DNA of 64,000 bases from an uncultured virus (IMG/VR IMGVR_UViG_3300028048_000131) (IMGVR_UViG_3300028048_000131); one strand, 5' to 3'; positions 4,077 to 59,765 are shown, numbered from the stretch's first letter. The notes: generated by a model not told the origin, from the sequence alone. Numbers and translations: made by a program.

Positions 4077-4769
4077 TTAATCGACAAAAATCCAACAAGG
4101 ATGTTTTACTTTGTTTTTGGCGTGTCTTAGAATAGAACCACGATCCATACCAGTCTACCTTGATGCCTAAGCTGCACTTTTGTACTACTTTTGTGTAATG
4201 AGATTTTTAACTCTCATATTTCTACCTAACTGATATTCACTGTGCTGCTTCCAGTAAACCTAGTATTGCTATAAAGGAATCTAAGGATATCTGAAATGAC
4301 TACCTTTGGTCTGCTTTAGACGCATTCTACAACAATCGCAGATATCGCTTCTGCAAAGACCTGTTTTTCTAGCTGCCTATGAAGCAGAAAAGTACTATAT
4401 ACCAGTCTAATGATGGATCACTGAATGATTACGATAGTTACTCTCTTGCCACTTTCTTCGTAACTCCTCAGTTGGTACTACGCCCTATCCACCCTAGCTG
4501 ATATTATAGCTTTTACCTTTTGCTCTATACTAAGCAATCAGCTAAATCTATTTTGCATCCAATTCTTCCTTACTTTGCAACTAACAAAGCGTCTATACAG
4601 TGAAGTTCTAAACTCCATACTTATTGATCATTCTACCTATATAGCATTTACCGTATTTTGCATGATTTATATGTTGTTTCCATCTGGCCTATACGGTGCG
4701 AGTAGTCTGACCAATATAAACACCCTATTTACCGGGTACATTACATGTGATTTTATAAATATATCCCAT
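4077..4769 (-). CDS. intron-encoded GIY-YIG homing endonuclease with NUMOD1-like repeats (19 in-frame TAG)
   Basis: GAGGTG RBS; MGYIYKITC...VYIGQTTRTV*ARW...KYGV*NFTV*TLC*LQSKEELDAK*I*LIA*Y...YNIS*GG*G...S*AARKTG; 230 aa ending TAA. Confidence 0.88.
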
Positions 4770-5027
4770 TTAACACCTCAACGTAATATATTTCCTTGTT
4801 GTTTATTATCAATATGGATCATATCATCTTCTCAGTTTCCCGAGAAGGAGCGCTTCGGGCTTACGCCCTACTCTACTGAGTGTTTGAACTTTTCGATGAT
4901 CTCTGAACCTTTTCCGGGCTCCATAGAGTAAACTCCTTAGGAGATCCCCCTGATCGGCTGCTGATTATCAGCTCCTGTTAAGAGCTGCCTTCCAGCAATT
5001 CACTTTCTTTAGACAGCTCCGCAGTTG
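4077..5027 (-). mobile_element. group I intron 1 in polA carrying a GIY-YIG endonuclease ORF in P9
   Basis: P1 ACAGCTT/GAGCTGT with U.G; same catalytic core as intron 2; CAACAAGGA/TCCTTGTTG and ATTGATAA/TTGTCGAT stems enclose the ORF; removal restores DYSFAEL; exact 3' end uncertain (see findings). Confidence 0.85.
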
Positions 5028-6658
5028 AAGCTGTAGTCACAAGCAACCAGAATAGTTCCATCTGGTGGCTTGAACATATTTTTCAGCGGGTACCTCTTAT
5101 CATGCGAGGGTAGCTGTTGACAGTTGATACCTGTAGCCGAGGTTCTTCCGGTTGCCACTATTCCATATCTTGGATGTACTTTTCCGTCTAATCTTATAAA
5201 AGCTCTGTTACAATAAGTGCTCAAATACTTCTGCACGTGGACAAAATTCATATAACAGTCCAGGAACGGATCCTTTACATCGAAGTCTCCTAGAATCCAG
5301 CCATCCTTCTTAGAGCACTTCAACAGCCCTGTCTTCTCAGTCCTTGCAAATTGTAATCCAGGATGCTCCTGCTCAAGCTTCTTCAAATGAGCCTGAATAA
5401 AATCCTGAGGTTTTATAGGAGGCTCTTCAGCAAACCAGTCCGGATGTTCCTGCACATACTCGTCAAGACCCTCCTTCATGCTCTCATAACTAAGTCCGTT
5501 CTCATAAGTTATACTGAGAAAGTCATCCAGGAACTTCTTCAGTAATAATGGGAAGACACACCTCTTTTTAGAAGCATCGCACGGGACCAGGAAGTCACAA
5601 TCCTCAGTAAGCTCGTCCCAGCTCTCTTTTTCACCTTTACTGAGAGTACTCTTTTCCTGTACCATCAGTGCAGTAAAGAGTCTTGCCAGAGCCGATTTAT
5701 CCTGCTTATTCTTTAACTCCTCAAGTCCGTACAGCAGAAGCCTCTTACAAGTAGTCTTTCCCGGAATATCCTTAGGTACCTTATAATCCTCTTCATAGAA
5801 GTTCTGGAAGTAGCTTGAAATATAATCTTTCCAGCCTTCTTCTAGGATTTCCATCTCGGTCTTCTCTTTCTTCTTCAAAGGATCAGGAAAGCCGAACTGA
5901 ATAAGCTGCTGCCTGTAAGTTTCCATATCGGTTTTCAGCAGATTCTCACAATAATCGAACATCTGCTTGTCAACTTCCATGCCGTTATTACTGATATGGG
6001 AAAGCACTATAGAACCCAGTGTATGGGTATCTTCCGTAGCTTGAGGGCCCATAAGATGACCCGCCATATAGGTAGTAGCACAGTCTATGCCCAGATAACC
6101 GCACTCTTCTTCTGTAAGATCTTTTCCCCTCCTGAAGTTCAGCCTTACAGAAGCATCGCCCTCATCTTCATGCTTGTTAATCCCATACGCAAGGTGCCAC
6201 TTACAAGCGTCCTTCAGCGAATATGTCATTATATAACCTATAGTGGCAATCTCTTTGAGAGCGCCCCTTATAAGGATATCTATAACGCGCCTGTCTGAAG
6301 CTGCCTGCTGAAGTTCCTCCGACCAGAGCTCGTAGTAATCGAATCCCGCATTAGCAAAGTATATGACAGTGTCCCTGATAAGAATCTCATGCATGAATTC
6401 CTGGGCATCTTCCCAGGAGACTATATAGCACTTGTTATCAAGAGGATTATACACACCCAGCACTACCAACGGAGGTGTTCTGCAGGTATCTGTAATGAGC
6501 TCGGTTTCTGTATCTATACCCAGTTCCTTACCAAACTTCGGCAATGGATCTCCGTGCTTCCACCTTACAGTCTCAAACTCAAGAGTCGCATATTGCAGCT
6601 CCTTTTTCTCTGTGAGAGCTTTATAGGCATTCTTCGCATACTTGATTTCGACATTCAA
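5028..6658 (-). CDS. polA: DNA polymerase family A, exon 1 (3'-5' exonuclease and start of polymerase domain)
   Basis: Exo motifs GIDTET, NAGFD, YLGID; ATGRTS, NCQQLP, motif A start ILVACDYS; spliced total about 838 aa. Confidence 0.9.
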
Positions 6659-7161
6659 AAAAGTCTCACCTTACCTTTCAGATTGTCTGCCCACTGCCAA
6701 TAGATATCATTCAGCTTTCCCTGACTCTGGAACTTATGGATGAACTTACCGGGGACCACCAAAGGAATAGCATTGGACATGACAATCGCTTTTGTGTTTA
6801 CTACGTAGAAAGAAGTGACTTCTCCTTTGTCCTGCACATCCTGGAGGAACAGATTGAAAATCACACTTCCCTCCATCTCCATTATGGACTTGACAAAATC
6901 ATCTTTCTTCACTTTATGAATGGCTGTCTGCGGCAGCCCCAGCACTTGAAGCAGTTCATTTCCTGTCTGTGGATTATATTGAAAAAGGGCGCCTTTTACA
7001 GCGCCCTTGGTTTCAGCGAAAAACTGCCAGTTATTAACGATGAAGTCCTTTTCGATGCTGAAACTTTGCTCTTTCGCTAGTTCCTTCTTTTCGGACCTCA
7101 TCGCCTTGATGAGTTCTCTGTTCAGCATGTAGCTATCAGCCTGCCTCCACATTCCGGACAA
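6655..7161 (-). CDS. hypothetical protein
   Basis: 168-aa ORF whose stop overlaps the polA start. Confidence 0.7.
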   Translation of the reverse strand: MSGMWRQADSYMLNRELIKAMRSEKKELAKEQSFSIEKDFIVNNWQFFAETKGAVKGALFQYNPQTGNELLQVLGLPQTAIHKVKKDDFVKSIMEMEGSVIFNLFLQDVQDKGEVTSFYVVNTKAIVMSNAIPLVVPGKFIHKFQSQGKLNDIYWQWADNLKGKVRLF

Positions 7162-7856
7162 TGCGCTTCCCAGTGCTCTTCATTATTAACCATCCAGATC
7201 TTACCTGGTGTGCGCTTATCCGACCAGTCTTTCTTGTCGAATTTGAAAGAAGTGCTGTCTGTCTCAAATTCAAAATCAGGACAGCCATTCTCACAATCCA
7301 AATAAGTTACCGGAAACATAAAACCATAATAATCAGGCGTATTAAATACTTTTGGAGAAGAGTAGCCCCATCTTGCAGCTGCTCCATTATGGGAACAAAC
7401 GATGAAGTAATCACAGGTATCATCCCAGGGATCTATAAAGTGTGTATAACAGAAGCAGCCATCCAGAATACTGTCATGGTTGTATGTATTGTCGCTGCCG
7501 CAAAGTAAATACCCTTTCATAGTCTTTACAAACTTCTCAAACATATCTGTATTGACTTGCGGCTCTTCACCCTGTTTCCTGAAGAACCTGTTAAGCTTCC
7601 TTGTAAGATCCGCTTCATAGTGCAGATGCTGACACATATGATGGTACATACTTTTGGTAATCATACCATCCAGCGAACCGTCTGTCCCATATACCCAGTC
7701 GAGCTTCATCACAGGATCTTCTTCAAGATTCCTTTTTCTGCGATATTCATATTGATAACCAAAGTAACTACCGGAATCAACAATGCTCTTCCCACAGCCT
7801 TCAGTCAGCATCTTGCGGATGACTGTTTGAATTCGCATCAGCAGCTCCTTTCGCAA
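7122..7856 (-). CDS. hypothetical protein with C-terminal CPECG zinc ribbon (start uncertain)
   Basis: 244-aa ORF in operon. Confidence 0.7.
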   Translation of the reverse strand: MRKELLMRIQTVIRKMLTEGCGKSIVDSGSYFGYQYEYRRKRNLEEDPVMKLDWVYGTDGSLDGMITKSMYHHMCQHLHYEADLTRKLNRFFRKQGEEPQVNTDMFEKFVKTMKGYLLCGSDNTYNHDSILDGCFCYTHFIDPWDDTCDYFIVCSHNGAAARWGYSSPKVFNTPDYYGFMFPVTYLDCENGCPDFEFETDSTSFKFDKKDWSDKRTPGKIWMVNNEEHWEAHCPECGGRLIATC

Positions 7857-9159
7857 GTTCTTTAAGGGCTTTCATGGAACTGGCTGCGGACGCTTTTCGT
7901 GCCTTTGCTTCTCGCTTTTCCTGCTTAGCCGCTTCTTTAGCTTTCTCAGCAGCAACTCTGGCTTCCTGCTCAGCTTTCTTCTCTGCTTTCTCAGCTTCTT
8001 TTGCTGCAGCTGCTGTGTTGCTTCTTTTAGCAACAAATTCCGGATACTCTGATGGAAGCTTGATACGCTCGATCTTGTGGTACTTATAGAGGTCGTCCAG
8101 TGTAGCATCGTTCTCAGGAGCAAACAGAGCTGTCTCAAACTCTTCCGGAGTAACCTTGTCAAGTCCGAACTGTTTGCACGTTACTAACCCCTGATCGTTC
8201 ATTTTTACATCTATGATGTCTCTGAGATTGCCTACGATCTTAGGAGCTGCCAGACATCTCGCTGTTGCCTCTGCAAACTGCCATTTGTGCCCCTGAGATT
8301 CTTCCTCGAGGTCCCCGAACTGATCCCAAGTAAACTTGGCTTCGATCTGTCTTGCATCTGCAAACCCGTTAAGAGCTGTCTTGATGCGCACGATCTTGCC
8401 GTTACCATTGGGAAGCTGTCCCATAAGAGAGAATGACAGAAGTGTTCCTGCTTTGAAAAGCTGAGAGTCGCCTCCTCCATAGGACTTCTGTGCGGCGGCA
8501 AAAGGTGAACGAGCACCATCTGAAACTTTCTCTTTTTCTTGCAGTACTCCTACGAATACCACTGGAAGCAGCCCCCTCAGGCCCACCCAGTTTTCACTGA
8601 AGTGCTTCATGATATGCGCCTTGGAGAAGAAACCTTTACTCACTACCTCTCCTCCTTCCAGCTTACCAGTAACATCTTCAGTGGCTGCGCCAGAGATTGA
8701 ATCCCAGTCTATCATTAAGGGAGTATCATATGCTTCCGCTTTCTTGAAGTTCTTCAACACTTTCTCTGTAAGGTGTTTTTCAGCACCATCCAGAGTAAGC
8801 CCTGTAAGAATCTGGAAAGGACCTGAGCCATCCAACCAGTCTTCATGATCTGAGAACATACTATAGATAAGTGTCGGAGAGGCTTTCCCTTCCAGCTCAT
8901 ACAGGAAAGAGATGCCTTCATTCTCACAACACAAATGTGCCAGAAAGAACGCGAAAGGACTTTTACATGACTTGGGCTTGCCCGCCATTAGATAGAAGCC
9001 GCCATAACGCAAACCGGTACTTCCAAATAGATACTGCAGACAATAATGCTTCAGAGGAATTCCAAATTGAGCTTCTTTAAAGTCGTTGATAGACATGGCA
9101 ATGCCGCCATCGGCCTTCTTCACAGAAGCCAATAAATCAGCTATCATGTTCTTTGCCAT
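7801..9159 (-). CDS. RecA/UvsX-like recombinase
   Basis: Walker A-like AGKPKSCKS, YELE, Walker B-like IDWDSI, GGG motif; Lys/Ala/Glu-rich tail. Confidence 0.75.
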   Translation of the reverse strand: MAKNMIADLLASVKKADGGIAMSINDFKEAQFGIPLKHYCLQYLFGSTGLRYGGFYLMAGKPKSCKSPFAFFLAHLCCENEGISFLYELEGKASPTLIYSMFSDHEDWLDGSGPFQILTGLTLDGAEKHLTEKVLKNFKKAEAYDTPLMIDWDSISGAATEDVTGKLEGGEVVSKGFFSKAHIMKHFSENWVGLRGLLPVVFVGVLQEKEKVSDGARSPFAAAQKSYGGGDSQLFKAGTLLSFSLMGQLPNGNGKIVRIKTALNGFADARQIEAKFTWDQFGDLEEESQGHKWQFAEATARCLAAPKIVGNLRDIIDVKMNDQGLVTCKQFGLDKVTPEEFETALFAPENDATLDDLYKYHKIERIKLPSEYPEFVAKRSNTAAAAKEAEKAEKKAEQEARVAAEKAKEAAKQEKREAKARKASAASSMKALKELAKGAADANSNSHPQDAD

Positions 9160-9160
9160 A

Positions 9161-10426
9161 TCAAAGCTCCATATTGTTCAGCAGATCTTGGGCCAGTTTA
9201 CCTTTATCGTTGCTTCCTTGTCCTACTTGAGCTTTGATTTTCGCAATAGTCGCCTGCAGGGCAGGAGAACTTCCCACAGTACCGGGACTGCTCCATGAAG
9301 GCTCTTCTTGTGTAGCTTCTTCAGGAGCTTCTTCCTGCTTTACAACAGGTTTCTTCAGACCACCTAAAGAAGACAGTCCTGACGCTTTCTGAGCAGGTTT
9401 AGAAGGTACTTTAGAGGTTGCCATGGAGACTTTGGTATCAAACTGCAGATCTTCCCAGTTTCTGTCCTGAGAAAACACATATTTAACTGTATCTGAGCCG
9501 AACTCTGCACACAGCAGGTCGATCTGTTCTTTGACAGTCAGATAATTGAATACCTTTTCCCACGGAACCCATAGCGCTTTTGCTTCATCCGGTTCAAAGT
9601 TCATTTCCGTGGGCTGCCACTGACTTGCAGGAACATCTGAAGGCTGCACAGAAGGACACAGATACTTGCGTCCTTTCTCGTCAACAGCTGTATTCAGATA
9701 CAACCAATTACCATTGAGCTCCGCAAGAGAACCAAAAGTATTGTTTGCTGTTCCAATAGGTTTCCTGCGATCCATTGGATTGATAAGAGCTTTCAGCAAC
9801 TCATTGATGGAGTTCTTATGCGTGATACCGATTACTGCATACAAAGGAGCTTCTTCTGCGTCCTCTTCATAGGACTTCTTGCAGACCATTCCATTGATCA
9901 TCTGGCAAACAGCCTGAAAGAACAGTGTTGCTTTTGGATAGGGGAGTGTTCCTCCCAGAGATGTCCACGAACGCCAGATATCCTGTACTTTCAGCTTTGT
10001 CTTTCTACCATTAGCAGCTGATCTCACTGCACGGTGGATACTGTTACAGAAATAGTTTAACGGTGAATCAGGATACCGCTCCCAGTCATCACTGTTAGGA
10101 CGCAGACTGGAAACCACATCCATTCCTGCCTCTCCGAAGTGATCACACACATCCACCATATAGAAAGTATCAGACAGGAACTGAGTCTGATCCGCATCCG
10201 GGGACCACATGGTCGGATCAATTACCTGTGGAAAGAAATCTGTACCGTCGTTACCGGGACAAATACGGACAATGCTATCCCTGCCTGTCCAAAGGATCCT
10301 TCCAATGAAGCTCTGCTGATAATCAAATATCTGCTTATATCCATCAGTACCTTCCTGTACAACTAATGGAAGGCGTCTGTTCTGCTGATTGTTCTGAGTT
10401 TGTCCTCTGTAAATGTTTTTCTGCAT
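9161..10426 (-). CDS. hypothetical protein, possibly ssDNA-binding
   Basis: 421-aa ORF directly upstream of the RecA-like gene, low-complexity C-terminus; function inferred from position only. Confidence 0.55.
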   Translation of the reverse strand: MQKNIYRGQTQNNQQNRRLPLVVQEGTDGYKQIFDYQQSFIGRILWTGRDSIVRICPGNDGTDFFPQVIDPTMWSPDADQTQFLSDTFYMVDVCDHFGEAGMDVVSSLRPNSDDWERYPDSPLNYFCNSIHRAVRSAANGRKTKLKVQDIWRSWTSLGGTLPYPKATLFFQAVCQMINGMVCKKSYEEDAEEAPLYAVIGITHKNSINELLKALINPMDRRKPIGTANNTFGSLAELNGNWLYLNTAVDEKGRKYLCPSVQPSDVPASQWQPTEMNFEPDEAKALWVPWEKVFNYLTVKEQIDLLCAEFGSDTVKYVFSQDRNWEDLQFDTKVSMATSKVPSKPAQKASGLSSLGGLKKPVVKQEEAPEEATQEEPSWSSPGTVGSSPALQATIAKIKAQVGQGSNDKGKLAQDLLNNMEL

Positions 10427-10429
10427 TGT

Positions 10430-10726
10430 TTACCTTTCTAAAATTATTTTATGTACTACTGCCTGCCTTGTGATACCTTCTGTAGGGATGTTCACTTGCA
10501 GGACAACTTTACTGTTTACTTTCATTGTTTCCACATATGCTGTAGTGGCAGCTGCATCGAATACATCTACATTGAGAACATGCATACCGCCAAAATCAGA
10601 CAATATCTGTCGATTTGCCTTACGCTTCTTATCCTGTTCCACAGACTTTATGCAAAGCATAACTGCTTCTTCAGGATCTGCGAAGGCAAACCTGTAATTC
10701 TCTATTTCAAGTAAATAGATTACCAT
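10430..10726 (-). CDS. hypothetical protein
   Basis: 98-aa ORF in operon. Confidence 0.65.
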   Translation of the reverse strand: MVIYLLEIENYRFAFADPEEAVMLCIKSVEQDKKRKANRQILSDFGGMHVLNVDVFDAAATTAYVETMKVNSKVVLQVNIPTEGITRQAVVHKIILER

Positions 10727-11216
10727 TTTTTATCAATTTCTTTGCTGTCTTTAACCCATTTTTCCAGGCTGTAGTCACAATGGACTTCAGCTCAGGCTTT
10801 TTCATTTTCAACTCTTCTTTGTTAAACTCAGGTCTTCTTCTCAACAGATCTTCCCAATAGCTCTCAGCCTTGCAGGGGCATTTATTAACGCAGCTCTTAC
10901 AGTCCTTGAGACACACAAAATCTCCGTGTCCATTTTCCATCTCTCTTGCATTGGTGATCTCCAGCCTGCAGGGATCGGCTTCCATAAGGATCCTTTTAAG
11001 CTTCCTGGAGCTGACTTTCCCTGCATATAGGAGTTTTTCACTGTCCCATAAGGTACATTGATCTGGAATAAGTTTCCCGTCGTTCCTTAAGGTAGACATA
11101 CATAAAGATAGAGGGAACCTGGTGATAGAGGTCTTAAGCTGTCCGATCACCCCATTGGAGGTTGAGTAGTTTACTTTAAGTACACGCAGGATGTAGCTGT
11201 AGGTTTCTTCTGTCAT
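10707..11216 (-). CDS. hypothetical protein with Cys cluster
   Basis: 169-aa ORF with AGGAG RBS. Confidence 0.7.
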   Translation of the reverse strand: MTEETYSYILRVLKVNYSTSNGVIGQLKTSITRFPLSLCMSTLRNDGKLIPDQCTLWDSEKLLYAGKVSSRKLKRILMEADPCRLEITNAREMENGHGDFVCLKDCKSCVNKCPCKAESYWEDLLRRRPEFNKEELKMKKPELKSIVTTAWKNGLKTAKKLIKNGNLFT

Positions 11217-11266
11217 AGTTGCTCCTTTCTAGAAGAATCTACAGCCTGACTTTTCAAAAGTCAAAT

Positions 11267-12754
11267 TTATAATACATTCGTATAGGATTCCTGCGTGTCC
11301 ACGCTCAGCTGTTCATTCTCTTTCTGAAGTTCTGCGATGTTTATGAACTGTCCATTCCTTCCAGGAGCATAACCTTCCAACAGCTTAAACATAGCATGAT
11401 TGCCGTCCAGCTCGATCACACATTCGCAAGGATACGCGCGCCTATTCTTATCACAGATATACCAACAACGTTGATTATCGTCACGTTTGCCCTGCACGAT
11501 TGCATAATCAGTCCAGTTAGCTGCCGATTTAATGAACTGTAATTCTACTGAAGTAGGTTTCCTGGATGCAGGGGACTTCTTGATGCCCGGTTCTAGCTGA
11601 TGAAAGATAATGATCCTGGTATGGAACTTCTTGGCAACCTGTACAAGCCCTGTGAGAAACTCATTTGCAATAGCTATATACTCTGTCACCTGTCCGATAT
11701 CGACACCTCTCTTAGTGGCTATATTCTTCACAGCAGCTCCGAGCCAGTCAACCATTACATAGGTTGGAACTTTGCCCTGAGCAGTCTGCCACATTGTAAG
11801 ACGTTTTTCGATACTGTACACAGAAAAGTCATCTTCTGGATCATCAGGATCAAGCATCTCATTACCGGAGAAATCCGAAGATATGATCTTATCCGCAGCT
11901 TGTGTTCTAATTTTCTCGAACTTTAGTCTGACCTGCTCTGAAAGATCCTTGTATTCAGATCCTCGGATCATATCCAAGTCGTATCCTGTAACGAAGCTCA
12001 CCAGGCGTTGCATGAGGTCTTGGTCAAAAGGCTGTTCGTACGTAAACCATGCTACACAATTACCTATAAGTAGTTGACTACCAACGAATTGTATAGTCTG
12101 CATAGACTTTCCTGCACCCATCAGACCTGCAATCAGACACACTTCTCCTTCAGACATGCCCCCGCAAGTTACCTTATCAAAGTAGTTAACTCCCATAGGT
12201 ACTTTTGGAACTCTTTTCAAAAACTTCTCTACTTTTAATAGAGGATTTATATAGAGTTCCTTGGAATCAGATCCATTCAAAGAGGACTGTATTTCAGCTC
12301 CCTGTTCCACCAATTTCTTGATGGCCGCGAATCTGGAGCTGTTATTGATAGCACTGGAAAGGTTCCTGTTAATGGCCTCTTCCAATACGCCTTTCAGATA
12401 TTCCTTACCATCCTTTGGATTCAGTTCTATCTGATTAAGATAGCTTGTACAGAGCTGCTTCAGCTTTTCCCTGTTCTCGGGAAGCATATCTGTCTTGGGA
12501 AGCTCCGAGAGAACTTCTGCCACATAATTCTGTCTGTCTATCTGCAGCCATCTGTTTTCCTGCTTGGACTTGACCACTTCATTGATCATGCAATTCCACA
12601 TGAGCGCCAGATGTGGTCTTCTCCTGGAGGGAAACAGATCAGCACCTTTCTTTGCTGCCTTAAGGGCCTGCAATAAAAGATCACTGTTACTTATAACATG
12701 CAGCAGACAGAGATCGTTCTTATCTAGTGGGATCATCTGCCAGCGCCTTTCCAA
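11267..12754 (-). CDS. DnaB-like replicative helicase
   Basis: GGMSEGEVCLIAGLMGAGKS (Walker A), FTYEQ, VMVDW, IFHQL, KNRR; start may be 12736. Confidence 0.85.
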   Translation of the reverse strand: MERRWQMIPLDKNDLCLLHVISNSDLLLQALKAAKKGADLFPSRRRPHLALMWNCMINEVVKSKQENRWLQIDRQNYVAEVLSELPKTDMLPENREKLKQLCTSYLNQIELNPKDGKEYLKGVLEEAINRNLSSAINNSSRFAAIKKLVEQGAEIQSSLNGSDSKELYINPLLKVEKFLKRVPKVPMGVNYFDKVTCGGMSEGEVCLIAGLMGAGKSMQTIQFVGSQLLIGNCVAWFTYEQPFDQDLMQRLVSFVTGYDLDMIRGSEYKDLSEQVRLKFEKIRTQAADKIISSDFSGNEMLDPDDPEDDFSVYSIEKRLTMWQTAQGKVPTYVMVDWLGAAVKNIATKRGVDIGQVTEYIAIANEFLTGLVQVAKKFHTRIIIFHQLEPGIKKSPASRKPTSVELQFIKSAANWTDYAIVQGKRDDNQRCWYICDKNRRAYPCECVIELDGNHAMFKLLEGYAPGRNGQFINIAELQKENEQLSVDTQESYTNVL

Positions 12755-13184
12755 TTTCGTTATATGGTTCTGGTAACGATGCTACCACCGAAGGGAACAT
12801 TTTGCAATAAGCTTTTGCCTTAGGAACCAACCTATCAACCACATAACCTTCTCCTGCAAACAACAGAAAAATCGCTATAGGTATAGACATGTTCTCCAGA
12901 TGCTTCAAAGCATCTTCCATGCCCAGCTCATTGGATGTCAGCTGCGCATATAGAGTTCCCGCATTCAGAATATGTCTTGGCAGAGATTGTGCTTCCTGAG
13001 TACATTCCTGTTTGTAGAGTTGAACATTATTTTCCTGTAGAGCCTTCCTTTCGAGCAATAAGGGACCCTGCTTTTCAGCAAGCCACAGCAAATATCCCTC
13101 AATAGGAATATCGTGTACCGCCTTAAGCTCTTTCAAGGACTGCTTTACATCCCTGGAAAAAGGGAGTTTATCTAGATCTTCCAT
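12720..13184 (-). CDS. hypothetical protein
   Basis: 154-aa ORF with AAGGA RBS. Confidence 0.7.
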   Translation of the reverse strand: MEDLDKLPFSRDVKQSLKELKAVHDIPIEGYLLWLAEKQGPLLLERKALQENNVQLYKQECTQEAQSLPRHILNAGTLYAQLTSNELGMEDALKHLENMSIPIAIFLLFAGEGYVVDRLVPKAKAYCKMFPSVVASLPEPYNEIGKALADDPTR

Positions 13185-13200
13185 AACACTTTCCTTCTAC

Positions 13201-13235
13201 AAACAAAAAGAGGAGCCCCGTTAAGAGGCTCCTCC
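13201..13235 (-). terminator. intrinsic terminator
   Basis: Minus strand GAGGAGCC-TCTTAACG-GGGCTCCTC followed by TTTTTGTTT. Confidence 0.7.
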
Positions 13236-13260
13236 CCGCCATATTGAAAGGAACAAACGG

Positions 13261-13740
13261 TTATCGGAACTTCTTTACGATCTTTTCACCTGTATCCAAA
13301 TTGAGCATCCCGCATGACACGATATCTTCCGGTGGAATGCCCAATTCTTCTGCCAGCTCCATAGTTTCTTTCATAAGCTGATTTTCAACAGCTTTCTTAC
13401 AGGGCTTCTTCGTTTTCTTTTTGCAGCAGCCCTCTGATGGGATATGAGCATCCTGGAGTGCAACCAGCACCTCACAAGCAGTCTTAAGGGCCTGCATCTC
13501 CCGGATAGTTTTATCCAGGACTGTAATAGCTTCTTCAGGTGTCTTTGGAAGCTCGGTGTCGCTGTTCATTGAGTTTTCAATGCTATCAAAGAGTTCTTCA
13601 AGGCCTCGTGACACCTTTTTAAATTCTTCTTTTGTCATCGTACAAGAACTCTTATTTGTCACTTTTTCCTTCTTGCAGCAACCCTTTTTGGAACATTTTC
13701 CGGTAGTTGCCTTGCAGAATCTTCCTTTTGCGTCTCTCAT
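13261..13740 (-). CDS. hypothetical Lys/Cys-rich protein
   Basis: 159-aa ORF, ATGA overlap with upstream helicase. Confidence 0.7.
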   Translation of the reverse strand: MRDAKGRFCKATTGKCSKKGCCKKEKVTNKSSCTMTKEEFKKVSRGLEELFDSIENSMNSDTELPKTPEEAITVLDKTIREMQALKTACEVLVALQDAHIPSEGCCKKKTKKPCKKAVENQLMKETMELAEELGIPPEDIVSCGMLNLDTGEKIVKKFR

Positions 13741-18530: not shown

Positions 18531-18562
18531 ATGGGGTATGGGGAGAACCTTCTGCGTGATTT

Positions 18563-46008: not shown

Positions 46009-46009
46009 T

Positions 46010-48532: not shown

Positions 48533-48544
48533 AAGTCACCATAT

Positions 48545-48577: not shown

Positions 48578-48605
48578 AAAGGAAAAACAAGTATCTTATT
48601 TAAGG

Positions 48606-49163
48606 TTACTGTATACCAGTAAGTGCGCGTGCAAGGTTTCCTGTTGTACTTCCACCATTTGAAGCACTGGACTTCCAATCAAAGTCGTCGAAGATAGCTG
48701 TAAAGATACCCTGAGCGATTGTTAACGCACCTTGTGTAGAAAGTGAGAAACGTACACCCTGCCCAAAGCAGCCTTTTAAGGTCAGTGTTTGCGGCTGAAT
48801 CTACTTCGCATCTTTGCATTTAGTTTTATCTGAAGTACTGGTAGCTATTTCGAGCCAAAAGGTAGAACAAGCCGAACCAAACTCAGTTAAAAAGGTATCT
48901 ACAACTGAGCCGGGACCTATAATGGTCTACAGCTGTACGGTGCCGGTCGGATGACCAACAAGTTTAATCGGCGTTCCGCCGCTTAGCGGATAGCGGGTAG
49001 AAACGTCTCTGGTAAAATTAATTGTTACACCCTAAACAGCCGCTAAAATAGCCGCGTCCACCTTAGTTTTATTTTTGCCTTTTAGCATTTTTACAGATGC
49101 GGACTGCAAAGACCATACTTCAGGCGTTTTATTTTCATATGGATTCTGAAGAACTTGTGGCAT
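48606..49163 (-). CDS. putative tail tube protein (3 in-frame TAG)
   Basis: GAGGTG RBS; 185 aa immediately after the sheath; V*GVTINFTRDVSTRYPL...GTVQL*TIIGP. Confidence 0.7.
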
Positions 49164-49171
49164 ATATCACC

Positions 49172-51220
49172 TCAACGCATATAGAAAGTTATATGGAATC
49201 TGTTGAAAGGTTTGGGCGGTTCGCCTTCTACCTAAGCATAGATACGATCTTTATAGACCTAATCCTGTTTGATAGATATAACAGATCCGGAAATCAGCTG
49301 CGGGCCAATATAATCATCTACGTATTCCATGAACTTATCAAGTTTATAGTTAAGCGTAGATTCCAGCAGATCGATCATCACAGGAGAAATGTTGGTGTTG
49401 CCAACCAGGTCCCGACCGGTTACTTTCAGAGAGAGCCCGATGCTGTCGATATCGCAGACAATGGACTGCTCATCGTAATTAACATCACCAGAGGCTACTG
49501 AAGTAAGCTGTCTGCGGCTGATGCAAGTACCATCTTCCCTCATACCAACACGCCAGAAACCGGCAGCACCGAGTTTACGGCTCTGAGAAGCTGTAAAGCC
49601 GTGGGCTTCTGTAGTTGTAATTGCTTTCATTGCAACGTTGCTGAGCGGTGCATGCGGATAGGTACCGGAGCGTTTACCTGCAAGAGCTGCTGCAACACAG
49701 TAGTTAGGAACAGCCATTGTGCTGTTGTACATAGCACCGTCTGCGATAGCGAAGCTGCAGCGCTTATTGGCAATATCTTTCCAAGCAATAATGGACTCGA
49801 TAATATCGGCATTATCAGAGAGTGTCTTATAGATTTCGACAACATCCGAAGCATCCAGTGTAGCACTGTAGTTACCCTGCAGCCAGATAATGTTTTTGTG
49901 GTTGGAGCTGTCGATAACAGCTTCGTAACCACCGCTATAACGGAAGATATCTCCGCGAACGATTGTTCCAACCTGCAGCAGAGGACTGCCAGTAAAAGTA
50001 ACACGGGTAAGGCTGTTGCTGGCTTCATAAGCAACCGAAGCAACGCTCAGAGAAATTCCGTTTGCAGGAAGAACAAGTTCTTCTGTCGGGATCTCTTTGC
50101 TGGCATACAGATACTTGAAGTAAGGAATCTCTTCCTGGGACTGCTTTTCAACGAACTGAAGAAGAGCCGCTGTAACTTCTTTATTATCTGTACACGGAAC
50201 AATGCCGTAGATACCGTCTTTATCTGCGATAAGATCAAGAGCTTTGCTATAAGCTTCGACCATAGCATCTGTCTCTTCCGGATCGCTTTCCAGTGCCACG
50301 AAGTAAACGAAGTTTCCTTCCGACTCTTCAACAGCATTCGCAACAGCGATTCCCAGCGGATTTTCAGGACAAACCTTTCCAAGAAGGTCTGCAACATAGT
50401 CCACATCAGCCACCTGTCCGTAGATCTTAGTGAACTTATCTGAGCGTACACGGTACTCAGCGTAGAAAGCGCCAGCTGCAATCGGATACTTTACAGCTTC
50501 GCCATTACCAAGAAGATCAAGTTCTTCGGATTCAGCGCCTGCTGCAACAGTAATATTTTTATCCCCGGCTGTAATGCTGTCAGCACTGACATAGCAGTTC
50601 ATTACCTTATAGAACTTAACTTCAGCAATAGAGGCACCTGCAGGGAAAGTTTTGGAAAGTACACACTTAGTATATTTTCCGTTGGAATCCTTCAGGAATC
50701 CGATTACGGTACAAGAAACAACAGAGCTGTCAGAATCATCCAGAGTAACTTTGGCAACGTCACCTTCCAGAACCGGAACGGCAGTTACCTCAGCATAAGG
50801 ATCTTTGAAGACGACTTTTGTGCCGTTCAACTTAACGGTCAGTGTATCATCCCCATCTGAGAGTTCAAATACAGTAGCAACAGAATCAGAACCATTATAT
50901 GCTCTGAATTCAAGCTCTGCGTCACGAACCAGAACTTTCGCGCCATACTTGCTTACATGGTCCACAATGTTGTCAGAACCTGCCCGAGCAGGATAAGGAC
51001 GAACTGTGAGCCCTTCTGCTTCAGTATAGACCGTGTTGTATTCAGAGGCAGGGTAATTGTCAGCGCTGTCAAGACGAAGCGCCTCACCGAAATCCTCATA
51101 CTTACGCACAATATAATGGGGCCCTATTACACATGCTCCAAGAGTCGGTACAGTTCCTGCTGCGGAAGCTTTGTAGACCTGGTTCAAGGTAACAATAGGA
51201 TCACTATAATTTGCAATCAT
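49172..51220 (-). CDS. tail sheath protein (2 TAG near the C-terminus)
   Basis: ACVIGP, NPLGIAV, YGIVPCT, YCVAAALAG, ISRRQLT; read-through adds D*VYKDRIYA*VEGEPPKPFNRF to TGA. Confidence 0.82.
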
Positions 51221-51233
51221 AATTGTTTTTCCC

Positions 51234-51887
51234 TTATTGGTTAATAGTTGTCAATCCCAGCCCCCGGAAAACCGGACCTTGCGTATCGTGTGTCCAGCTC
51301 AATACACTGGAAGCTGCGACTGAAATTTCGCTCATATATACTTGTTTAGCGTTTCCCATCTGTCCATTAGGCACCGGTTGAACGGCACTTACCTGCATAA
51401 CTGCTATGGAGCTGATGTTGTTGCAGTCACTTTGTATCGACTAGCTGTTCATCATCAAAAACGTCTATATCAGCTACGCTAATAAGATTGTTCCGTCATA
51501 ACTCTATGTAACTACAGACACTATAACAGGGATCTGCTTGATCCTCCACTACAGATTAGGACTTGCCATAGGATTCCTGCCGAACTAGGGATTACCTCCT
51601 CTATTGACAGGTCTGGCCATATAGGATATTTCTCCAAGACTTATTATAATAGCTGGAGTAGTTCCCTAATATCTCTTGTCAGGAGAAAACGCACATCCGA
51701 CTTTTACACAGTCCTTATTGAGATTCCCTTTTGGATCATACATAAGGGAGACCAGTCTCTAATCCTTGATGTTCCGACTGTCGGCAAAGAAGTTGTTAAG
51801 AATATCCTTTATGTACTTGACAACCCGGCTCTGCTGTCCGAAAGCATCAGGAAGAGTACTTTTTTCTGTATAATCAGTAAGATTCAT
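51234..51887 (-). CDS. putative tail completion/terminator protein (TAG-recoded)
   Basis: 217 aa directly upstream of the sheath, ATGA overlap. Confidence 0.55.
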
Positions 51888-52708
51888 TCAAAGGCCTTCT
51901 TCCACTAGTCACCGCTTATGAAAGCTTCCTGTAAAACCTGTTGTGCTCTTGGAGTGTGAAGCACGTCGGAAAGCTCTAATAGGTGCATCTTCAACTGATA
52001 TATAAGCGGCACATGCTTGAATTTGGAAGCTATATCAGCTTGCTCTATATAAAACCGCTGATCAGTGTTATCATCTACCCAGACATCCCCGAGTTCTATA
52101 ATGGGCCAGGCTGTACACTTAGCCTGTAGTATCACAGATTTGGTGCTCCCTATCTGCTGTATACCCTAATTGGAACTCTATCCTACCTATAATATATTCA
52201 TAGGAATAGCTCTGTAATAGCCACCCTTGATGCCTGTTCCAAGACACACAGGACAGTGCTAGTTCACAGGAGAGTCATCCTAGAAGTGCATACAGGCAGG
52301 GCACTTCTAGCCATAGATGATCTTCTTCATAAGATATCCGGTGCGGCCTGTTTTCTACATCTAAAGCTAGCTGAGACGAATAAGATTGCTTGCCTAGGAA
52401 CTATATGGATAGCTCAGAGTGATCCCTGCCTGCTGGGGCTAAGAATAGTACTGCTGACCGTCCGCATTCATTCTAACTCTGTAGTAGTCGTTATTGTATT
52501 TGTTGCGGTTGGTTCTTCTATTATCTATATAACAATAGCTTACAGGCAGGCCCTCTGCTAAAGTCTACCACGTTCCACCACTGCGAGCATATTCTACTGA
52601 CAGTAAAGTGTCCTAAGGCAGTGTTATTCCTGCGTCGAACTACCAGGAGAGCGCCCTTGAATTATTGGCCAATATAAATACTTTTAAAGCTTTGAACGGA
52701 CTGGACAT
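51884..52708 (-). CDS. putative neck protein with zinc finger (TAG-recoded)
   Basis: CPVCLGTGIKGGYY motif; contains ORF 51905..52135; 274 aa. Confidence 0.6.
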
Positions 52709-53613
52709 CAATGCCACCAGCGCTAAGTACTTTCAAGATAGATATCAGAGATGCTTCCCATACACTCAAGCATATTCAGCTAGCTCTTTTTAGTCTGCAC
52801 CCAGCTTTTCCATTCTTGCAGGGCATTCTGAGCGAGCTGCATGTACATCTGTCCCTTGTCATTATCATCGTAAGTGAGACCTGCGTTGGCATGTCTCATC
52901 TGGTTTCTCATATATCTGTAAGAAGCCATCTTGAAGAGATAACCCGAAGCTCCTGTGCAAAGGTTGCTTCTAAAAGGAAAAGTAGAAACAGTAAGATTCC
53001 TGGAAAGCTGAGGAGGCATCTAGTTCCAGTCCTGTACTGCGCGGTCCATGCATCTGGCAATAACGATGTCTGAGAACTAAAGGTCATTGAGGAGCTAGTT
53101 CTGCTGGCCTGAAGTGTCATACATCTACATTCTTACCTAAGCAATGGTAAGCGGCCTGAAGCCACAAGGGCACGGACTCGCCAGGGAATGCTCTATCTAA
53201 AGACAGCATTTAAAGATATGTCTGAGAACTCCGTCCTAGTCCCTGCACTGGAACTAGGCATAGTGAAGCCCCTAATTGCATTCAGTCTGCTAAGGGCCCA
53301 GAGAAAAAGTTACTTTTCCATTACCCTGATACTAACAGGGAACTTCAAAAATATAGCAGCCTCTGTTCTAAGCAAGACACGCCAATTTTACATTATCAGT
53401 AGAATATAACTCTGCGGGAATAGTTCCCTACAGATCTTGTGTAAGCTGTACGATAAAGTCCGCAGTAAGTCCTGCAGTAGTTCTTATTACAGGCACTCCA
53501 TAAGAAGAAGCTGCATGTCCGGTGGCCGCTTGGGAAGCCTGCCCGTCGGCGCCTCCACCGCCCCCAATACCGCCAGCTCCTGGAGTTGCTTCAGGTATGC
53601 AAATATCAGCCAT
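52708..53613 (-). CDS. putative head-tail adaptor (TAG-recoded)
   Basis: TIA*VRM*MYD...N*LLNDL*FSD...WN*MPP...RYMRNQM; joins ORFs 53428..53613 and 52780..53019. Confidence 0.65.
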
Positions 53614-55078: not shown

Positions 55079-55152
55079 GCCCGGGTCGTCTAAAAGAAGG
55101 ATACTGCGCTCTAAACGCGGAGATTGGATTGCAAAATTCCAGCCGGGTACCA
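55079..55152 (+). tRNA. amber suppressor tRNA (anticodon CUA), tRNA-Glu-like body
   Basis: Acceptor GCCCGG/CCGGGT plus ACCA, D stem GTCT/GGAT, anticodon stem CTGCG/CGCGG with loop CT-CTA-AA (55111-55113), 4-nt variable loop AGAT, T stem TGGA/TCCA; atypical D and T loops. Confidence 0.85.
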
Positions 55153-55162
55153 AGCAATTTAC

Positions 55163-55223
55163 AGAGGGCTAGAGAGTGCAGCTCGAAAACCTGTTCCCTA
55201 GCAGGCCGCCCTCTTTCTTTTTT
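55163..55223 (+). terminator. branched hairpin with U-tract between tRNA and endonuclease
   Basis: AGAGGGC/GCCCTCT closing stem followed by TTCTTTTTT. Confidence 0.55.
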
Positions 55224-55254
55224 CACCTAGGGAAGTAACAATAGGGAGTTATTT

Positions 55255-56457
55255 ATGACACCACAAGAAGCCTGTAATTTTCCACTCGATCTAGAGAATC
55301 ATTATGGTTACGTATATTGTGTAACCTTTCCTTCCAGTAAAAAGTATATAGGACAATCCAAGCGTCCCTGGAAATACCGTTGGAAGTGTCACCACTCGGA
55401 TACATCGTTTTGTCCTGCAATGAAAAATGCCTTGCAAAAATATAATACAGAAGAGCTCGTCTGGGAACTTTTGTGTTATGCGGATTCTCCACAAGAATTA
55501 ACGGATAAGGAAACTTATTATATACAAAAACTATCCACACTCGCTCCTGGAGGATACAACATTTCTCTTCCTTGTAAGGCTTATCCATACCCAGAAGAAA
55601 AAGCAGATAGGATCCGGTTAGGTCTTGCTCTACACCATTTACGTAAGACTAATTCTGACGCTACTATAGAAGACGCCAAATATTATATTGCACACAAGGA
55701 CGACAAGCCTCCTAAATTAGAGAAAGGCTCTCCGGAGTGGATAGAGAAGTATAGAATAGCCACAGAAAAAAGAAGAGCTACTATGCAGGCGCGAGGTAAA
55801 AACATGAGTGATATCATGAAAAGGGTAGCTAAAGAAAAACCATCTATGAATCAAGGAATGTGTGTAGCTCTTATAGTATATGAAACAGGCGAGCAGTTCG
55901 AATCCATAGCGGATTTTTGTAATAAATATAACGTTATAAGTTCTTGCGCATCCTTTTGCTTACAGAAGAAGAATAAAGAAATAGGCGGAATGCATATCTA
56001 CCCGGCCTCCTGTACTCAAGAGGAATTGCAAGAGTATATAAAGTTCTGGAATGAGCCTAAAAAAGTTCCTAAAGGTATTCTTACCTGTGTTGAGACAGGC
56101 AAAACTTATAGAACGGCTAAAGAAGCAGCGGACGAGCTCTGTGTACTAAGAAGCAGGATCCACATGGCAACAAGGCGTAATTTACCTGTAAATGGATTTC
56201 ATTTTATATATGCCCCGGCTGTAGGCGTAAATCCTAATGGTGGAAAGTCTGTTAAGTGTCTAGAAACCGGTAAGATCTATACATCCCAAAGGGAGGCAGC
56301 TAGAGATATACTAAAGGTAACAGACGAGGGGAAAGCCAAGGCAGGTGCAGACCAGATAAAGAAAGTTATTGAAGGCTCACGTAAGGACTTCCATGGATAT
56401 CATTTTACTTATGTGGCTACAGGTTCACCCTTAACAATTTCTCAGGAGCTCCTCTAA
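55255..56457 (+). CDS. free-standing GIY-YIG homing endonuclease with NUMOD1-like repeats (no TAG)
   Basis: GYVYC..KKYIGQS..RW..H, ELTDKETYYI, GYNI; three ETG.Y/F repeats. Confidence 0.85.
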   Translation: MTPQEACNFPLDLENHYGYVYCVTFPSSKKYIGQSKRPWKYRWKCHHSDTSFCPAMKNALQKYNTEELVWELLCYADSPQELTDKETYYIQKLSTLAPGGYNISLPCKAYPYPEEKADRIRLGLALHHLRKTNSDATIEDAKYYIAHKDDKPPKLEKGSPEWIEKYRIATEKRRATMQARGKNMSDIMKRVAKEKPSMNQGMCVALIVYETGEQFESIADFCNKYNVISSCASFCLQKKNKEIGGMHIYPASCTQEELQEYIKFWNEPKKVPKGILTCVETGKTYRTAKEAADELCVLRSRIHMATRRNLPVNGFHFIYAPAVGVNPNGGKSVKCLETGKIYTSQREAARDILKVTDEGKAKAGADQIKKVIEGSRKDFHGYHFTYVATGSPLTISQELL

Positions 56458-57564: not shown

Positions 57565-57579
57565 AAATTGGAAGCATAC

Positions 57580-58161
57580 ATGAGAGTGTGGAAAGATATA
57601 CCTTCTATACCTGATTATCAAGTAAGTTCTGACGGAAAGGTTAGAAGAAAAGAAAGATATTCTGTTTTTTACGCCAAGAGAATGGGAGGAAGAACAGACA
57701 AAGTATCACTAATAAAAAGACACCAAAAAGCTAAAGAGCTAAGAATACAGTCGTGTTTTGTGTACCCCTCTGTTTCTATTAAAGATAGAATTCGCCAGGT
57801 ACATAGATTGGTAGCTCAAGCATTTATTCCAAACCCATAGAACAAACCTTGTATAAACCATAAAGATGGGAACAAATATAATAGTTGCGTGGAAAACCTA
57901 GAATGGTGTACCTACAGCGAAAATGAATTACACTCACACAGGGTACTAGGTAAGAAAAGTAAGCCTATGACGTAGCAGACAAAGAGAAAGGCCCTGCAAG
58001 TTAGAAAAACGAATTACCTTAGTAGATGTCTGGCACTTTTAGGAGAGAAAGAAACTACTAAGAAAACTAATACGCAGCTTGCTTTATAGCACGGCGTGAG
58101 TCGAAGAACAATACAGCAACAATTAAAAGATGCAAAAGCATCTAGAAAGGAGACAAAATGA
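57580..58161 (+). CDS. NUMOD4-HNH homing endonuclease (3 in-frame TAG)
   Basis: WKDIP..YQVSSDGKVR, VHRLVAQAFIPNP*NKPCINHKDGNK.N..VENLEWCTYSEN; TGA overlaps the next ATG. Confidence 0.85.
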
Positions 58162-58307
58162 GTGAACAAAAAGTTTGCGGAAAACGCACCGAAGTTTACT
58201 CTCGATAACGTATCTGTGGCTACTATCGTCCCGTTACCAACTGGAACCAGGGAAAGCGGGAAGAATTTAAAGATCGTAAGCTCTATAAAGTAAATGCCCC
58301 ATCCTGA
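58158..58307 (+). pseudogene. small NrdD C-terminal (glycyl radical)-like ORF interrupted by a 6-nt insertion containing TAA
   Basis: TEVYS-R-stop-RICGYYRPVTNWNQGKREEFKDR. Confidence 0.65.
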
Positions 58308-58719
58308 TACATTCTAGTACATTCCTAAGCCGGGTAACGGTTATGTGTACCACATAACCTCCGGCAAGAAACATTATATAGGTATCTCCACTACACCCTT
58401 CTCCAGAAGATGGGAACGCCATAAAGCTCCTGACTCAGGCTGTACAAAGCTTGTGAAGGAGCTTAATCGTCTTCGGGCTACAGGCAACTGGGCCCAACTT
58501 AATGTATAGATCCTCAAAGAAGCTCGTAATGCCCAGCTTGACAAGCTGTAGAAGAAGTACATAAAGAAGTATGCTTCTTATAAGAGCATCTACGGAATGA
58601 ACTCCACTCCGGGAGGTAGAGATGTCACTCCTGCCTCTATGCACATGAAAAAGCTCTTCAGGAGAACTAAAAGGAAGATTCAAAAGACCCAGGAAACTTT
58701 TTCCTGGGACCTTATATAA
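58294..58719 (+). CDS. GIY-YIG nuclease (3 in-frame TAG)
   Basis: GYVYHI...HYIGIS...RW.RH...NV*ILKE...LDKL*KKYI...GMNSTPGG; 141 aa ending TAA. Confidence 0.8.
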
Positions 58720-59092
58720 ACTTCTTCAAGTACTCTATGGCCCTTATTATAATATTAGGCTTAGAAGTTCTCTACCACCATGAAGGACCATAAATAAGCT
58801 TCTTGCAATGCTTTTCCACAAAGCAGTCGATACACCTGGTTCCCACCATATTACTCTAAGGAACTCTTTTCTTGCAGACACAACATCTACACTGCTTATT
58901 TTGAAGCTTCTATTTAAGAAGCTGCAGATACTTGTTTATTTCCCCATATACCAGCTATTGATAGTAATAAATAGGCAGCCCTTTGCTGGTTATATCAATA
59001 TGGTCCGGCTAGATCTAAAGAACATGCAGGATACGCCGGATCTTACTCTAGGAGACATTGTAGTGGGCTGCCATTTGAGCCCTGGTTATCAT
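58712..59092 (-). CDS. HTH and Cys-cluster protein (TAG-recoded)
   Basis: ITRAQMAAHYNVS*SKIRR, CCVC..CIDC; TGATG overlap. Confidence 0.65.
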
Positions 59093-59250
59093 CAGAAAAC
59101 AAACTTATGTCCAATTACACAGCCAGCTATAAAAGCAGCTGCAATAGCTAGAATACTTAGACCGAACAGCCAGTAATTGTTTTTATTTATAATATGACGG
59201 CTGTTGATAAGAATTTTCTACAGTTCCTGTAATTTTTCGCTGTCTGTCAT
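59092..59250 (-). CDS. small membrane protein (1 TAG)
   Basis: 52 aa with C-terminal TM. Confidence 0.5.
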
Positions 59251-59258
59251 TTTGTCCC

Positions 59259-59765
59259 TCATGCGTATATCAAGCTCCATCCAGTGGGAGCTTCTGTTAC
59301 ATTCTGATAAGCCATATATCTGGAAAGCTATATGGTATAAATATTGTCGTTGCTGATAGTTAAAGAATCTGTCTATACAGAGTACATGGCCCCATTGTTT
59401 GTTATAAGATCCACAGGGCGTCTCTTATTCTTTGTAGGTGTAAAATAGTACTTGCCCCCGCCGCCATCGACTACATTCACAATAGGCTCTCTGTAAGTAG
59501 CCACCAAGTCATACTGATCTGCAAGCTCCGAGACATCGAGAACATTTATAAGATCTGCTATAGTCAGAATATGTGGCTTGTGCTTTATAAAGGAAGGCAA
59601 AGAACTGTCAGAGATATCCCAATCAGCAACATAGTTCATATAGTAGCGCTGATTAAGATGGTTCCAGTACATCTAACCTGTTTGTGTATTAAGCGCAATA
59701 TACTAGGACAGCCCGTTTGTAAGCATGTCCAATCTCTATGTATTGCCTGTGAAAAATTTAAGCAT
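59259..59765 (-). CDS. hypothetical protein (TAG-recoded)
   Basis: GAGGTG RBS; contains ORF 59373..59672; 168 aa ending TGA. Confidence 0.65.

Follow-up and report, generated by a model that had tools for sequence, protein, structure and literature searches.

The amber codon TAG is a sense codon in the phage represented by a 64,000-nucleotide stretch of DNA from an uncultured virus (IMG/VR IMGVR_UViG_3300028048_000131), which we call the window and which is phage DNA throughout. An earlier note on positions 4077 to 59765, written from the sequence alone, had proposed that TAG is reassigned to glutamate (Glu, E) and not to glutamine (Gln, Q), and the comparisons described here support that interpretation. 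In the account that we consider very probable, the early genes follow the standard code, 345 in-frame TAGs of the late genes specify Glu, translation ends at TAA and TGA, and decoding depends on a tRNA with anticodon CUA, tRNA(CUA), and a glutamyl-tRNA synthetase (GluRS), a mechanism that is in part conjectural. On this view the phage would be tailed, belong to a cattle-gut community, have a genome of roughly 180 kb, of which the window covers about 64 kb, and give one codon two readings: the TAG-free early genes for replication and recombination could be translated by an unmodified host, and a late set in which TAG would mean Glu would comprise the virion proteins, the terminase, a sigma-like factor and the homing endonucleases. 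The sequencing runs that contain the window are labelled bovine gut.

TAG as a sense codon

Open reading frames (ORFs) were called with TAA and TGA as the only stops, a minimum length of 60 amino acids (aa) and greedy selection of non-overlapping frames, which gave 74 ORFs in the whole window, 63 of them within positions 4077-59765. Among these 63, at least one in-frame TAG was present in 42, at least two in 32 (349 TAGs) and at least three in 30 (345 TAGs in 9601 codons). On the minus strand of positions 25204-53613, only seven ORFs of at least 100 aa were open under table 11, covering 4143 of 28410 bases (15%), as compared with 33 ORFs covering 27787 bases (98%) when TAG was read as sense. 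The statement in the earlier note that more than 30 genes are continuous only with TAG as sense agrees with the 32 ORFs carrying at least two TAGs and with this gain in cover. Once TAG was read through, the genes of the window matched their relatives at full length.

TGA closes 45 of the 74 ORFs and TAA the other 29, and none ends in TAG, as had been described for the gene ends traced earlier, although this count is partly so by construction of the calling. The TAG-free early genes keep the same ends under table 11, and TAG is therefore needed as a terminator by no gene. The standard-code relatives have no in-frame TAG, and in them TAG terminates 15 of 136, 16 of 128 and 19 of 127 long ORFs (11-15%). 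The TAG-containing motifs quoted in the note were all found in our translations, and its codon count for the nuclease at 4077-4769 was reproduced, with 19 TAGs versus three GAA and three GAG.

We consider it next to impossible that GAG codons became these TAGs through sequencing error or damage, or that the genes carrying them are dead. The TAGs occur only in late genes and homing endonucleases, and contigs from an RNA-library run of another study were identical (0 differences) to positions 37000-39048, 39175-41603, 41683-42784 and 43699-45317, which attests to presence, not transcription. Moreover, 43 TAGs are common in register to the window and a 52%-identical relative from another collection; together with the identical contigs, this indicates that the TAGs did not arise in the assembly of a single data set. 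A diverged strain from a third study showed 250 differences, most of which fell on the third base of codons in the TAG-containing reading frame. For the 40 of these 250 differences that were listed, the change was synonymous in 28 of the 35 codons touched, and the sole TAG touched, at 41745-41747 (codon 113 of the ORF at 40428-42083), was GAG in the strain. The same TAG pattern was present in 15 of 38 further loci from one metagenome scan, the remaining 23 being standard by ORF cover. Systematic G-to-T error or damage, which the note had named as a way for its proposal to fail, was assessed on contigs: those of the RNA-library run keep the TAGs, and the 52%-identical relative has 43 of them.

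The residue at TAG

The baseplate gene has 23 full-length relatives, and their Gln residues are ambiguous because public pipelines write Q for TAG; the DNA of relatives was therefore compared. Two recoded relatives in IMG/VR (L001 and L002) have 25 in-frame TAGs in the baseplate gene at 52% identity, and five standard-code relatives (L003-L007) have none at 34-35% identity. A complete recoded relative, G001 (192 kb, with terminal repeats), shows the same early/late TAG split as the window, which is collinear with its positions 84-162 kb. For the column test, window proteins with X at each TAG were searched by tblastn against standard-code DNA, relatives at least 90% identical to one already kept were dropped, and a plus-strand ORF at 60856-62871, probably a shadow of genes on the other strand, was excluded from every column count. 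The sheath protein had no relatives in IMG/VR and only 23%-identical matches in named phage records, and terminase matches in named phages (21-24% identity) were rejected as too distant for use.

The TAG columns of the window (228 columns, 1455 cells) held E in 26.5% of cells, D in 9.8% and Q in 5.0%, a profile that matches the window's own GAA/GAG columns (655 columns, 2846 cells; E 26.7%, D 12.9%, Q 6.7%) and not its CAA/CAG columns (531 columns, 2629 cells; E 11.0%, D 6.2%, Q 23.0%). One residue reached at least 60% in 64 of the 140 TAG columns with at least four relatives, and that residue was E in 29 and Q in two. Three complete standard-code genomes covered 151 TAG columns, of which 41 were invariant, with 28 E, 5 D, 2 A, 2 P, 2 L, 1 N, 1 S and 0 Q, while Gln-codon columns in the same three genomes had Q in 57 of 106 invariant columns. 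Homologous residues at TAG are thus enriched for Glu, not Gln, as the note had expected.

Likelihood comparisons gave the same ranking. With BLOSUM62 and BLOSUM45, Glu came first for all five relatives taken singly, with margins of 23-30 nats for the three full genomes, and it was also first with an empirical matrix; the classes used as controls (E, Q, D, S, T and K) were recovered in every test but one. Bootstrapping of columns placed Glu first in 2000 of 2000 replicates (E minus Q, 16.5 to 44.0), and gene by gene it was first in 11 of the 16 genes with at least five aligned TAG columns. A different residue such as Asp or Ser is scarcely believable: after E, the residue most often present at TAG columns is D, and S or D came first in three poorly conserved genes, but both fall behind E by 48-51 nats summed over columns, and D fills 41.8% of cells at true Asp-codon columns.

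Codon use points in the same direction. GAA and GAG together make up 3.45% of codons in the 30 TAG-rich genes, TAG 3.59% and CAA plus CAG 4.42%, and the corresponding values in 11 TAG-free early genes are 8.28%, 0 and 4.64%. Gln use is alike in both gene sets, and TAG would therefore make up the Glu deficit of the late genes; counted as Glu, it represents 51% of all Glu codons in the TAG-bearing late genes. In the alignments with G001 orthologs, 200 window GAA/GAG codons stood opposite TAG in 36 cases and opposite GAA/GAG in 13. Conservation of Glu between the window and this recoded relative would be 15 of 200 (7.5%) if TAG were Gln and 102 of 383 (26.6%) if TAG were Glu, with values of 31-42% for D, K, N, S, T and R in the same comparison.

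The GIY-YIG nucleases at 4077-4769 and 58294-58719 each have one TAG in the catalytic-Glu column of I-TevI by profile alignment, a column that aligns with the position differing (E versus A) between two I-TevI catalytic-domain PDB entries and that we take to be Glu75. The I-TevI match came from a five-sequence profile, and a phmmer search of the GIY-YIG protein against PDB gave no match at an E-value of 1 or below. For the nuclease at 58294-58719, a 66%-identical ortholog in G001 has E at the TAG column, and the TAG-free GIY-YIG protein at 55255-56457 has a GAA/GAG-coded E in the catalytic column, so that both the two TAGs and the ordinary Glu to which the note had drawn attention were found in place.

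Where the window has TAG, standard-code relatives read LEFSD, WNE.PP, KK.ELNM and FIPNPENKP, the last of these opposite FIPNP-TAG-NKP in the HNH endonuclease at 57568-58161; the Glu positions previously suggested for L-TAG-FSD, WN-TAG-MPP and AFIPNP-TAG-NKP are therefore upheld. The gene containing VS-TAG-SKIRR had no homolog among the relatives compared. In the sigma-factor-like protein, E was present in at least four of five relatives at 5 of 10 TAG columns, and in the conserved late protein at 52708-53613 it was present in all three standard-code relatives at 4 of 15 TAGs.

Under NCBI genetic code 15, TAG positions should correspond to Gln in homologs, and the E-rich columns would have to reflect the chemical likeness of E and Q. 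A public protein database entry (P0001) that equals the window's baseplate protein does have Q written at all 19 TAGs, a slight lean to Q appears in 2 of 16 genes and in one likelihood variant on L001, and a passage of Borges et al. describes amber suppressors as readily glutaminylated in E. coli. We nevertheless hold Gln to be quite unlikely, given the low share of Q at TAG columns relative to Gln-codon columns, the higher share of E, and the complete absence of Q, as compared with 28 E, from the invariant columns. Reading TAG as Gln would also leave the late proteins with 3.45% Glu, conserved at only 7.5% between orthologs, and would replace the catalytic Glu of two nucleases by Gln.

Several observations weigh against Glu. 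The five genes of 16 in which it was not first favoured Q (two genes, margins of 0.1 and 0.6 nats), D (one) or S (two), and all were among the least conserved. For L001, the empirical-matrix likelihood preferred Q over E by 17.7 nats pooled (Q first in three relatives, S in one and E in one), with BLOSUM matrices giving E in four of five; in our judgement the preference arises, on columns that evolve fast, from the flatter profile of Gln, since only 5% of cells there are Q. Window TAGs stand opposite 18 CAA/CAG codons versus about 6-8 GAA/GAG codons in L001, a scarcity explicable by the fact that L001 late genes hardly use GAA/GAG. In the closest relative, L091, TAG was exchanged with GAA/GAG six times and with CAA/CAG three times, numbers too small to decide. 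Finally, E and Q exchange readily in proteins, and the assignment to Glu is drawn from sequence.

TAG might also be decoded ambiguously, as Glu with some Gln or near-cognate residues, or with low efficiency, so that late proteins exist as populations. This would fit the avoidance of TAG in abundant virion proteins, as if the codon were costly, and the lack of a release-factor gene in the relative searched, and the reading as Glu derives from genes, not from protein product. We regard ambiguous decoding as unlikely, however. Q takes no larger a share of TAG columns (5.0%) than of Glu-codon columns (6.7%), and the columns therefore require no Gln component; in addition, with 345 TAGs, up to 34 of them in one gene, decoding must be efficient. 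Based on these alignments, we concluded that TAG positions are under the selection typical of Glu and not of Gln.

Candidate tRNA and synthetase

If TAG is read as Glu, decoding would be carried out by a phage tRNA(CUA), for which the window holds a candidate at 55079-55152. A lax Rfam scan placed a tRNA at 55079-55149 on the plus strand (28.0 bits versus a gathering score of 29; E-value 0.013 for 7 kb and 4227 families), where the anticodon loop CUCUAAA gives anticodon CUA and the CCA end is encoded. The predicted structure has a 4-bp D stem (GUCU/GGAU) with U11-A24 and U13.G22, and a variable region of 4 nt (AGAU) with A46. In the cmscan alignment the candidate therefore carries U11-A24, U13-G22 with A46 and no residue 47, which are described in a section of PMC9976931 as the major determinants for GluRS in the tRNA-Glu of E. 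coli, and passages of PMC2777447 give a D stem of typically 4 bp for tRNA-Glu and 3 bp for tRNA-Gln. Because these GluRS-type determinants are present, the candidate may be charged with Glu. Amidotransferases need U1-A72 and reject G1-C72, according to portions of PMC2777447 and PMC9976931, and because this pair is missing, Glu on the tRNA would probably escape amidation. Charging would be done or aided by a compact, TAG-free phage GluRS of the kind present in G001. We consider this tRNA and GluRS mechanism plausible and only partly shown for this phage.

Other features of the candidate are less favourable. Its T arm is odd (U53.U61, G55), and it differs from the E. coli tRNA-Glu set U34 U35 C36 A37, G1-C72 and U2-A71 in having C34 U35 A36 A37, G1.U72 and C2-G71. 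ARAGORN found no tRNA in the window and so missed it; it was absent from the whole-window E-value scan, and its score lies below Rfam gathering. Comparison of tRNA bodies with 32 tRNAs of four related genomes gave best identities of 0.62-0.67 spread over Leu, Thr, Asp and Gln, with no isotype indicated. These 32 tRNAs were found by ARAGORN in G003, G004, G005 and G001, with no tRNA-Glu in any of the four; in G004 alone, Rfam gave 23 tRNAs, two tRNA-Gln included.

The candidate lies where relatives carry tRNAs, and clear tRNA(CUA) genes occur in relatives, including one in G002 (L014:1417-1490) that adjoins tRNA-Met. Halves of the relatives' suppressor tRNA had 0 matches in the window with up to 3 mismatches allowed, and the anticodon arm of the window tRNA had 0 matches in IMG/VR. 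Among 16 loci of the G001 lineage, 13 (L015:1222-1495 on the minus strand, L077-L079, L081-L086 and L088-L090) have the suppressor tRNA(CUA) interrupted after U35, and it is intact in three (L014, L080 and L087), of which L080, also recoded, has a public record named 'human gut metagenome', so that the lineage may extend beyond cattle. The insert in G001 is 252 nt long and gave a full-length match to a group I intron model (31 bits; gathering 50); splicing of the interrupted tRNA(CUA) could act as a gate of the code switch. In the window, the int-alpA RNA at 55162-55232 is the only Rfam match above gathering and lies 10 nt past the tRNA CCA, just 5' of a GIY-YIG gene. This int-alpA-like RNA may simply terminate the tRNA transcript.

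In G001, a TAG-free gene for a GluRS of 356 aa lies where the early region ends, at about 20 kb. The protein matched PF00749 (2.1e-41), and it matched gltX_bact (8.9e-60), GluQRS (1.9e-31) and glnS (1.3e-05) with scores that were all below the NCBIfam cut-offs; for gltX_bact the score was 202.9 bits versus a curated cut-off of 289.95, with 356 aa set against a 470-position profile. The class I signatures HIGN and PLSKR are present, and an alignment of 30 sequences shows no variation at H16, G18, S197, K198 and R199. A structural model (predicted local distance difference test, pLDDT, 94.4) superposed end to end on bacterial GluRS (Z 32.9, root-mean-square deviation 2.5 A, 351 of 356 residues), residues 1-356 aligning to 24-486 of 3afh with the helical anticodon-binding domain included; by comparison, GluQRS aligned to residues 1-238 only and GlnRS gave a Z of about 22.

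The GluRS family is absent from all five standard-code relatives, each at least 93% complete. In the window, tblastn with the G001 enzyme did not find a GluRS (best E-value 0.17); as the window corresponds to 84-162 kb of G001 and the GluRS gene maps to about 20 kb, any such enzyme of this phage would be encoded off the contig. At 90% identity, the cluster containing the G001 enzyme numbers 500 members, whose contigs reach 192 kb. Two more distant relatives, P0025 (53% identical) and P0026 (45%), had no IMG/VR loci and lie on contigs of at most 9.7 kb, and named phage records gave only 27-30% identical matches. On the unfavourable side, the link between GluRS and recoding comes from one complete recoded genome, and the release factor family PF00472 had 0 matches in five related genomes. 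We put at somewhat better than even the chance that these large phages form a gut lineage (cattle, and human by one record name) with a private UAG = Glu code operated by a natural orthogonal pair, a miniature GluRS and a tRNA(CUA) whose anticodon loop is often split by a group-I-like intron.

Gene organization and comparison with known systems

Table 1. Features of the window, with in-frame TAG counts and supporting matches
Feature	Position	Strand	In-frame TAG	Support
Family A DNA polymerase, C-terminal part	3392..4087	-	0	PF00476, E-value 7.6e-08
GIY-YIG and NUMOD-like homing endonuclease	4077..4769	-	19 in 230 codons	PF01541, 1.1e-06; PF22083
Early replication/recombination block: polymerase N-terminal part, UvsX-like recombinase (7801-9159), DnaB-like helicase, SF2 helicase, SbcC-like, SbcD-like	5009..20880	-	0 under table 11	Pfam and PHROG matches
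Large terminase subunit	20926..22962	+	11	PF05876, 6.4e-07; 44-47% identity to standard-code relatives
Late gene, function without assignment	25204..25851	-	13	
Tightly packed late (virion) block	27364..53613	-	most genes open only with TAG as sense	
Baseplate J-like protein	37345..38892	-	19	PF04865, 1.2e-06
Sigma-factor-like protein	39649..40431	-	10	phrog_351, 2.4e-08
Tail sheath-like protein	49172..51220	-	2 in 682 codons	phrog_279, 1.1e-04
Late protein with zinc-ribbon motif	51884..52717	-	15	
Conserved late protein	52708..53613	-	15	alignment to relatives
Candidate suppressor tRNA, anticodon CUA, encoded CCA	55079..55152	+		Rfam tRNA, 28.0 bits
Structured RNA int-alpA, U run at end	55162..55232	+		RF02996, 39.9 bits (gathering 35.8)
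GIY-YIG endonuclease	55255..56457	+	0	PF01541
NUMOD4/HNH endonuclease	57568..58161	+	3	
GIY-YIG endonuclease	58294..58719	+	3	
Two or three small late ORFs	58712..59765	-	7, 1, 5	
Major-head-like protein	60715..61737	-	0	phrog_2522, 3.9e-05 (weak match)

The window combines an early block without TAG and a TAG-rich late block (Table 1), and G001 is laid out alike. The polymerase is divided between two minus-strand ORFs (5009-6658 and 3392-4087) with the TAG-rich GIY-YIG ORF between them, and in G001 it is likewise divided, there with two TAG-rich ORFs between the parts. Rfam matched no group I intron in the window at an E-value of 0.5 or below, and the earlier label of intron nuclease for the ORF at 4077-4769 is provisional. 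Three further homing endonuclease genes (GIY-YIG, NUMOD4/HNH and GIY-YIG) are grouped beside the tRNA site on the plus strand (55255-58719). The true start of the terminase is probably downstream of 20926, and the conserved late protein at 52708-53613, formerly labelled 'neck', had no family match. The excluded plus-strand ORF at 60856-62871 (671 aa) overlaps four TAG-free minus-strand ORFs (60715-63977) that have operon-like overlaps and include the major-head-like protein, and it also gives tblastn matches in relatives.

TAG density is highest in the endonuclease ORFs, reaching 8.3% at 4077-4769, and the sheath-like and head-like proteins, with two TAGs and none, contrast with 3-5% TAG in their neighbours. 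These abundant virion proteins avoid TAG, as though they were exempt from reliance on suppression, and suppression may accordingly be less complete than ordinary decoding, or slower.

These results may have important implications for the annotation of phage genomes, since phage gene callers offer only Gln for TAG and would write the wrong residue at 345 positions of the window, catalytic glutamates included. A natural pair of GluRS and tRNA(CUA) would be a candidate orthogonal pair for genetic-code engineering, and the availability of both standard-code and recoded relatives, with proteins 34-57% identical, allows gene-by-gene tracing of the change from GAG/GAA to TAG.

No claim of TAG as Glu in a phage was found in the literature searched (open-access papers and bioRxiv), in agreement with the note's statement that such a code is undescribed, and Gln is assigned to TAG in every such phage there with a stated residue. 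In the Borges et al. preprint, TAG is said in one passage to align best with Gln 'in most cases', and in another, where phage and host codes differ, only the changes TAG to Gln and TGA to Trp are reported, host GlnRS and TrpRS being easy to subvert. A portion of the Lak paper describes some TAGs aligned with E, with Q kept, and the sections consulted of the phAss-1, theta-ribozyme, jumbo-phage and annotation papers assume Gln. A Glu reading breaks the rule stated by Borges et al., the main survey, and a virus-borne GluRS would be a different route, and if true it would be a counter-example to phages hijacking only host GlnRS or TrpRS for stop-codon recoding.

The phages assigned to code 15 (crAss-like phages, Lak, phAss-1 and the clades of Borges et al.) resemble the window in several respects set out in parts of the published descriptions: TAG is sense in late, structural and lysis genes and early genes are standard, a suppressor tRNA(CUA), for which the window has a near-threshold candidate, is present there, genes end in TAA or TGA, and introns in phage tRNAs are also described (10.1101/2021.08.26.457843, PMC13037316, PMC10607447, PMC8346664). 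They differ in the residue, which is Gln there and most probably Glu here. In addition, phAss-1 is described, in the relevant part of its paper, without a synthetase, in contrast to the GluRS of the recoded relative G001. The Jade phages, two TGA-recoded genomes treated in a section of Borges et al., carry a TrpRS and release factor 1 (RF1), and there, as here, the proposal is that a synthetase of the phage charges the tRNA that brings about the code change; codon, residue and enzyme are different, however, and no release factor was found in the relative examined here.

If true, the reassignment would be the first of UAG to Glu outside eukaryotic nuclei. In the eukaryotic nuclear codes 30 and 31 (peritrich ciliates and Blastocrithidia), UAG is Glu genome-wide and UAA is Glu as well, whereas in the window TAA is a stop, ending 29 of 74 ORFs (called with TAA as a stop), and the reassignment would be limited to a viral late gene set. 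In charging there is a likeness to the bacterial indirect Gln pathway and to GluRS2 of H. pylori: according to passages of PMC2777447 and PMC9976931, a GluRS-type enzyme there places Glu on a tRNA with a non-Glu anticodon, and GluRS2 ignores the anticodon. The indirect pathway converts this Glu to Gln before use, while the columns aligned with TAG in the window point to Glu being kept.

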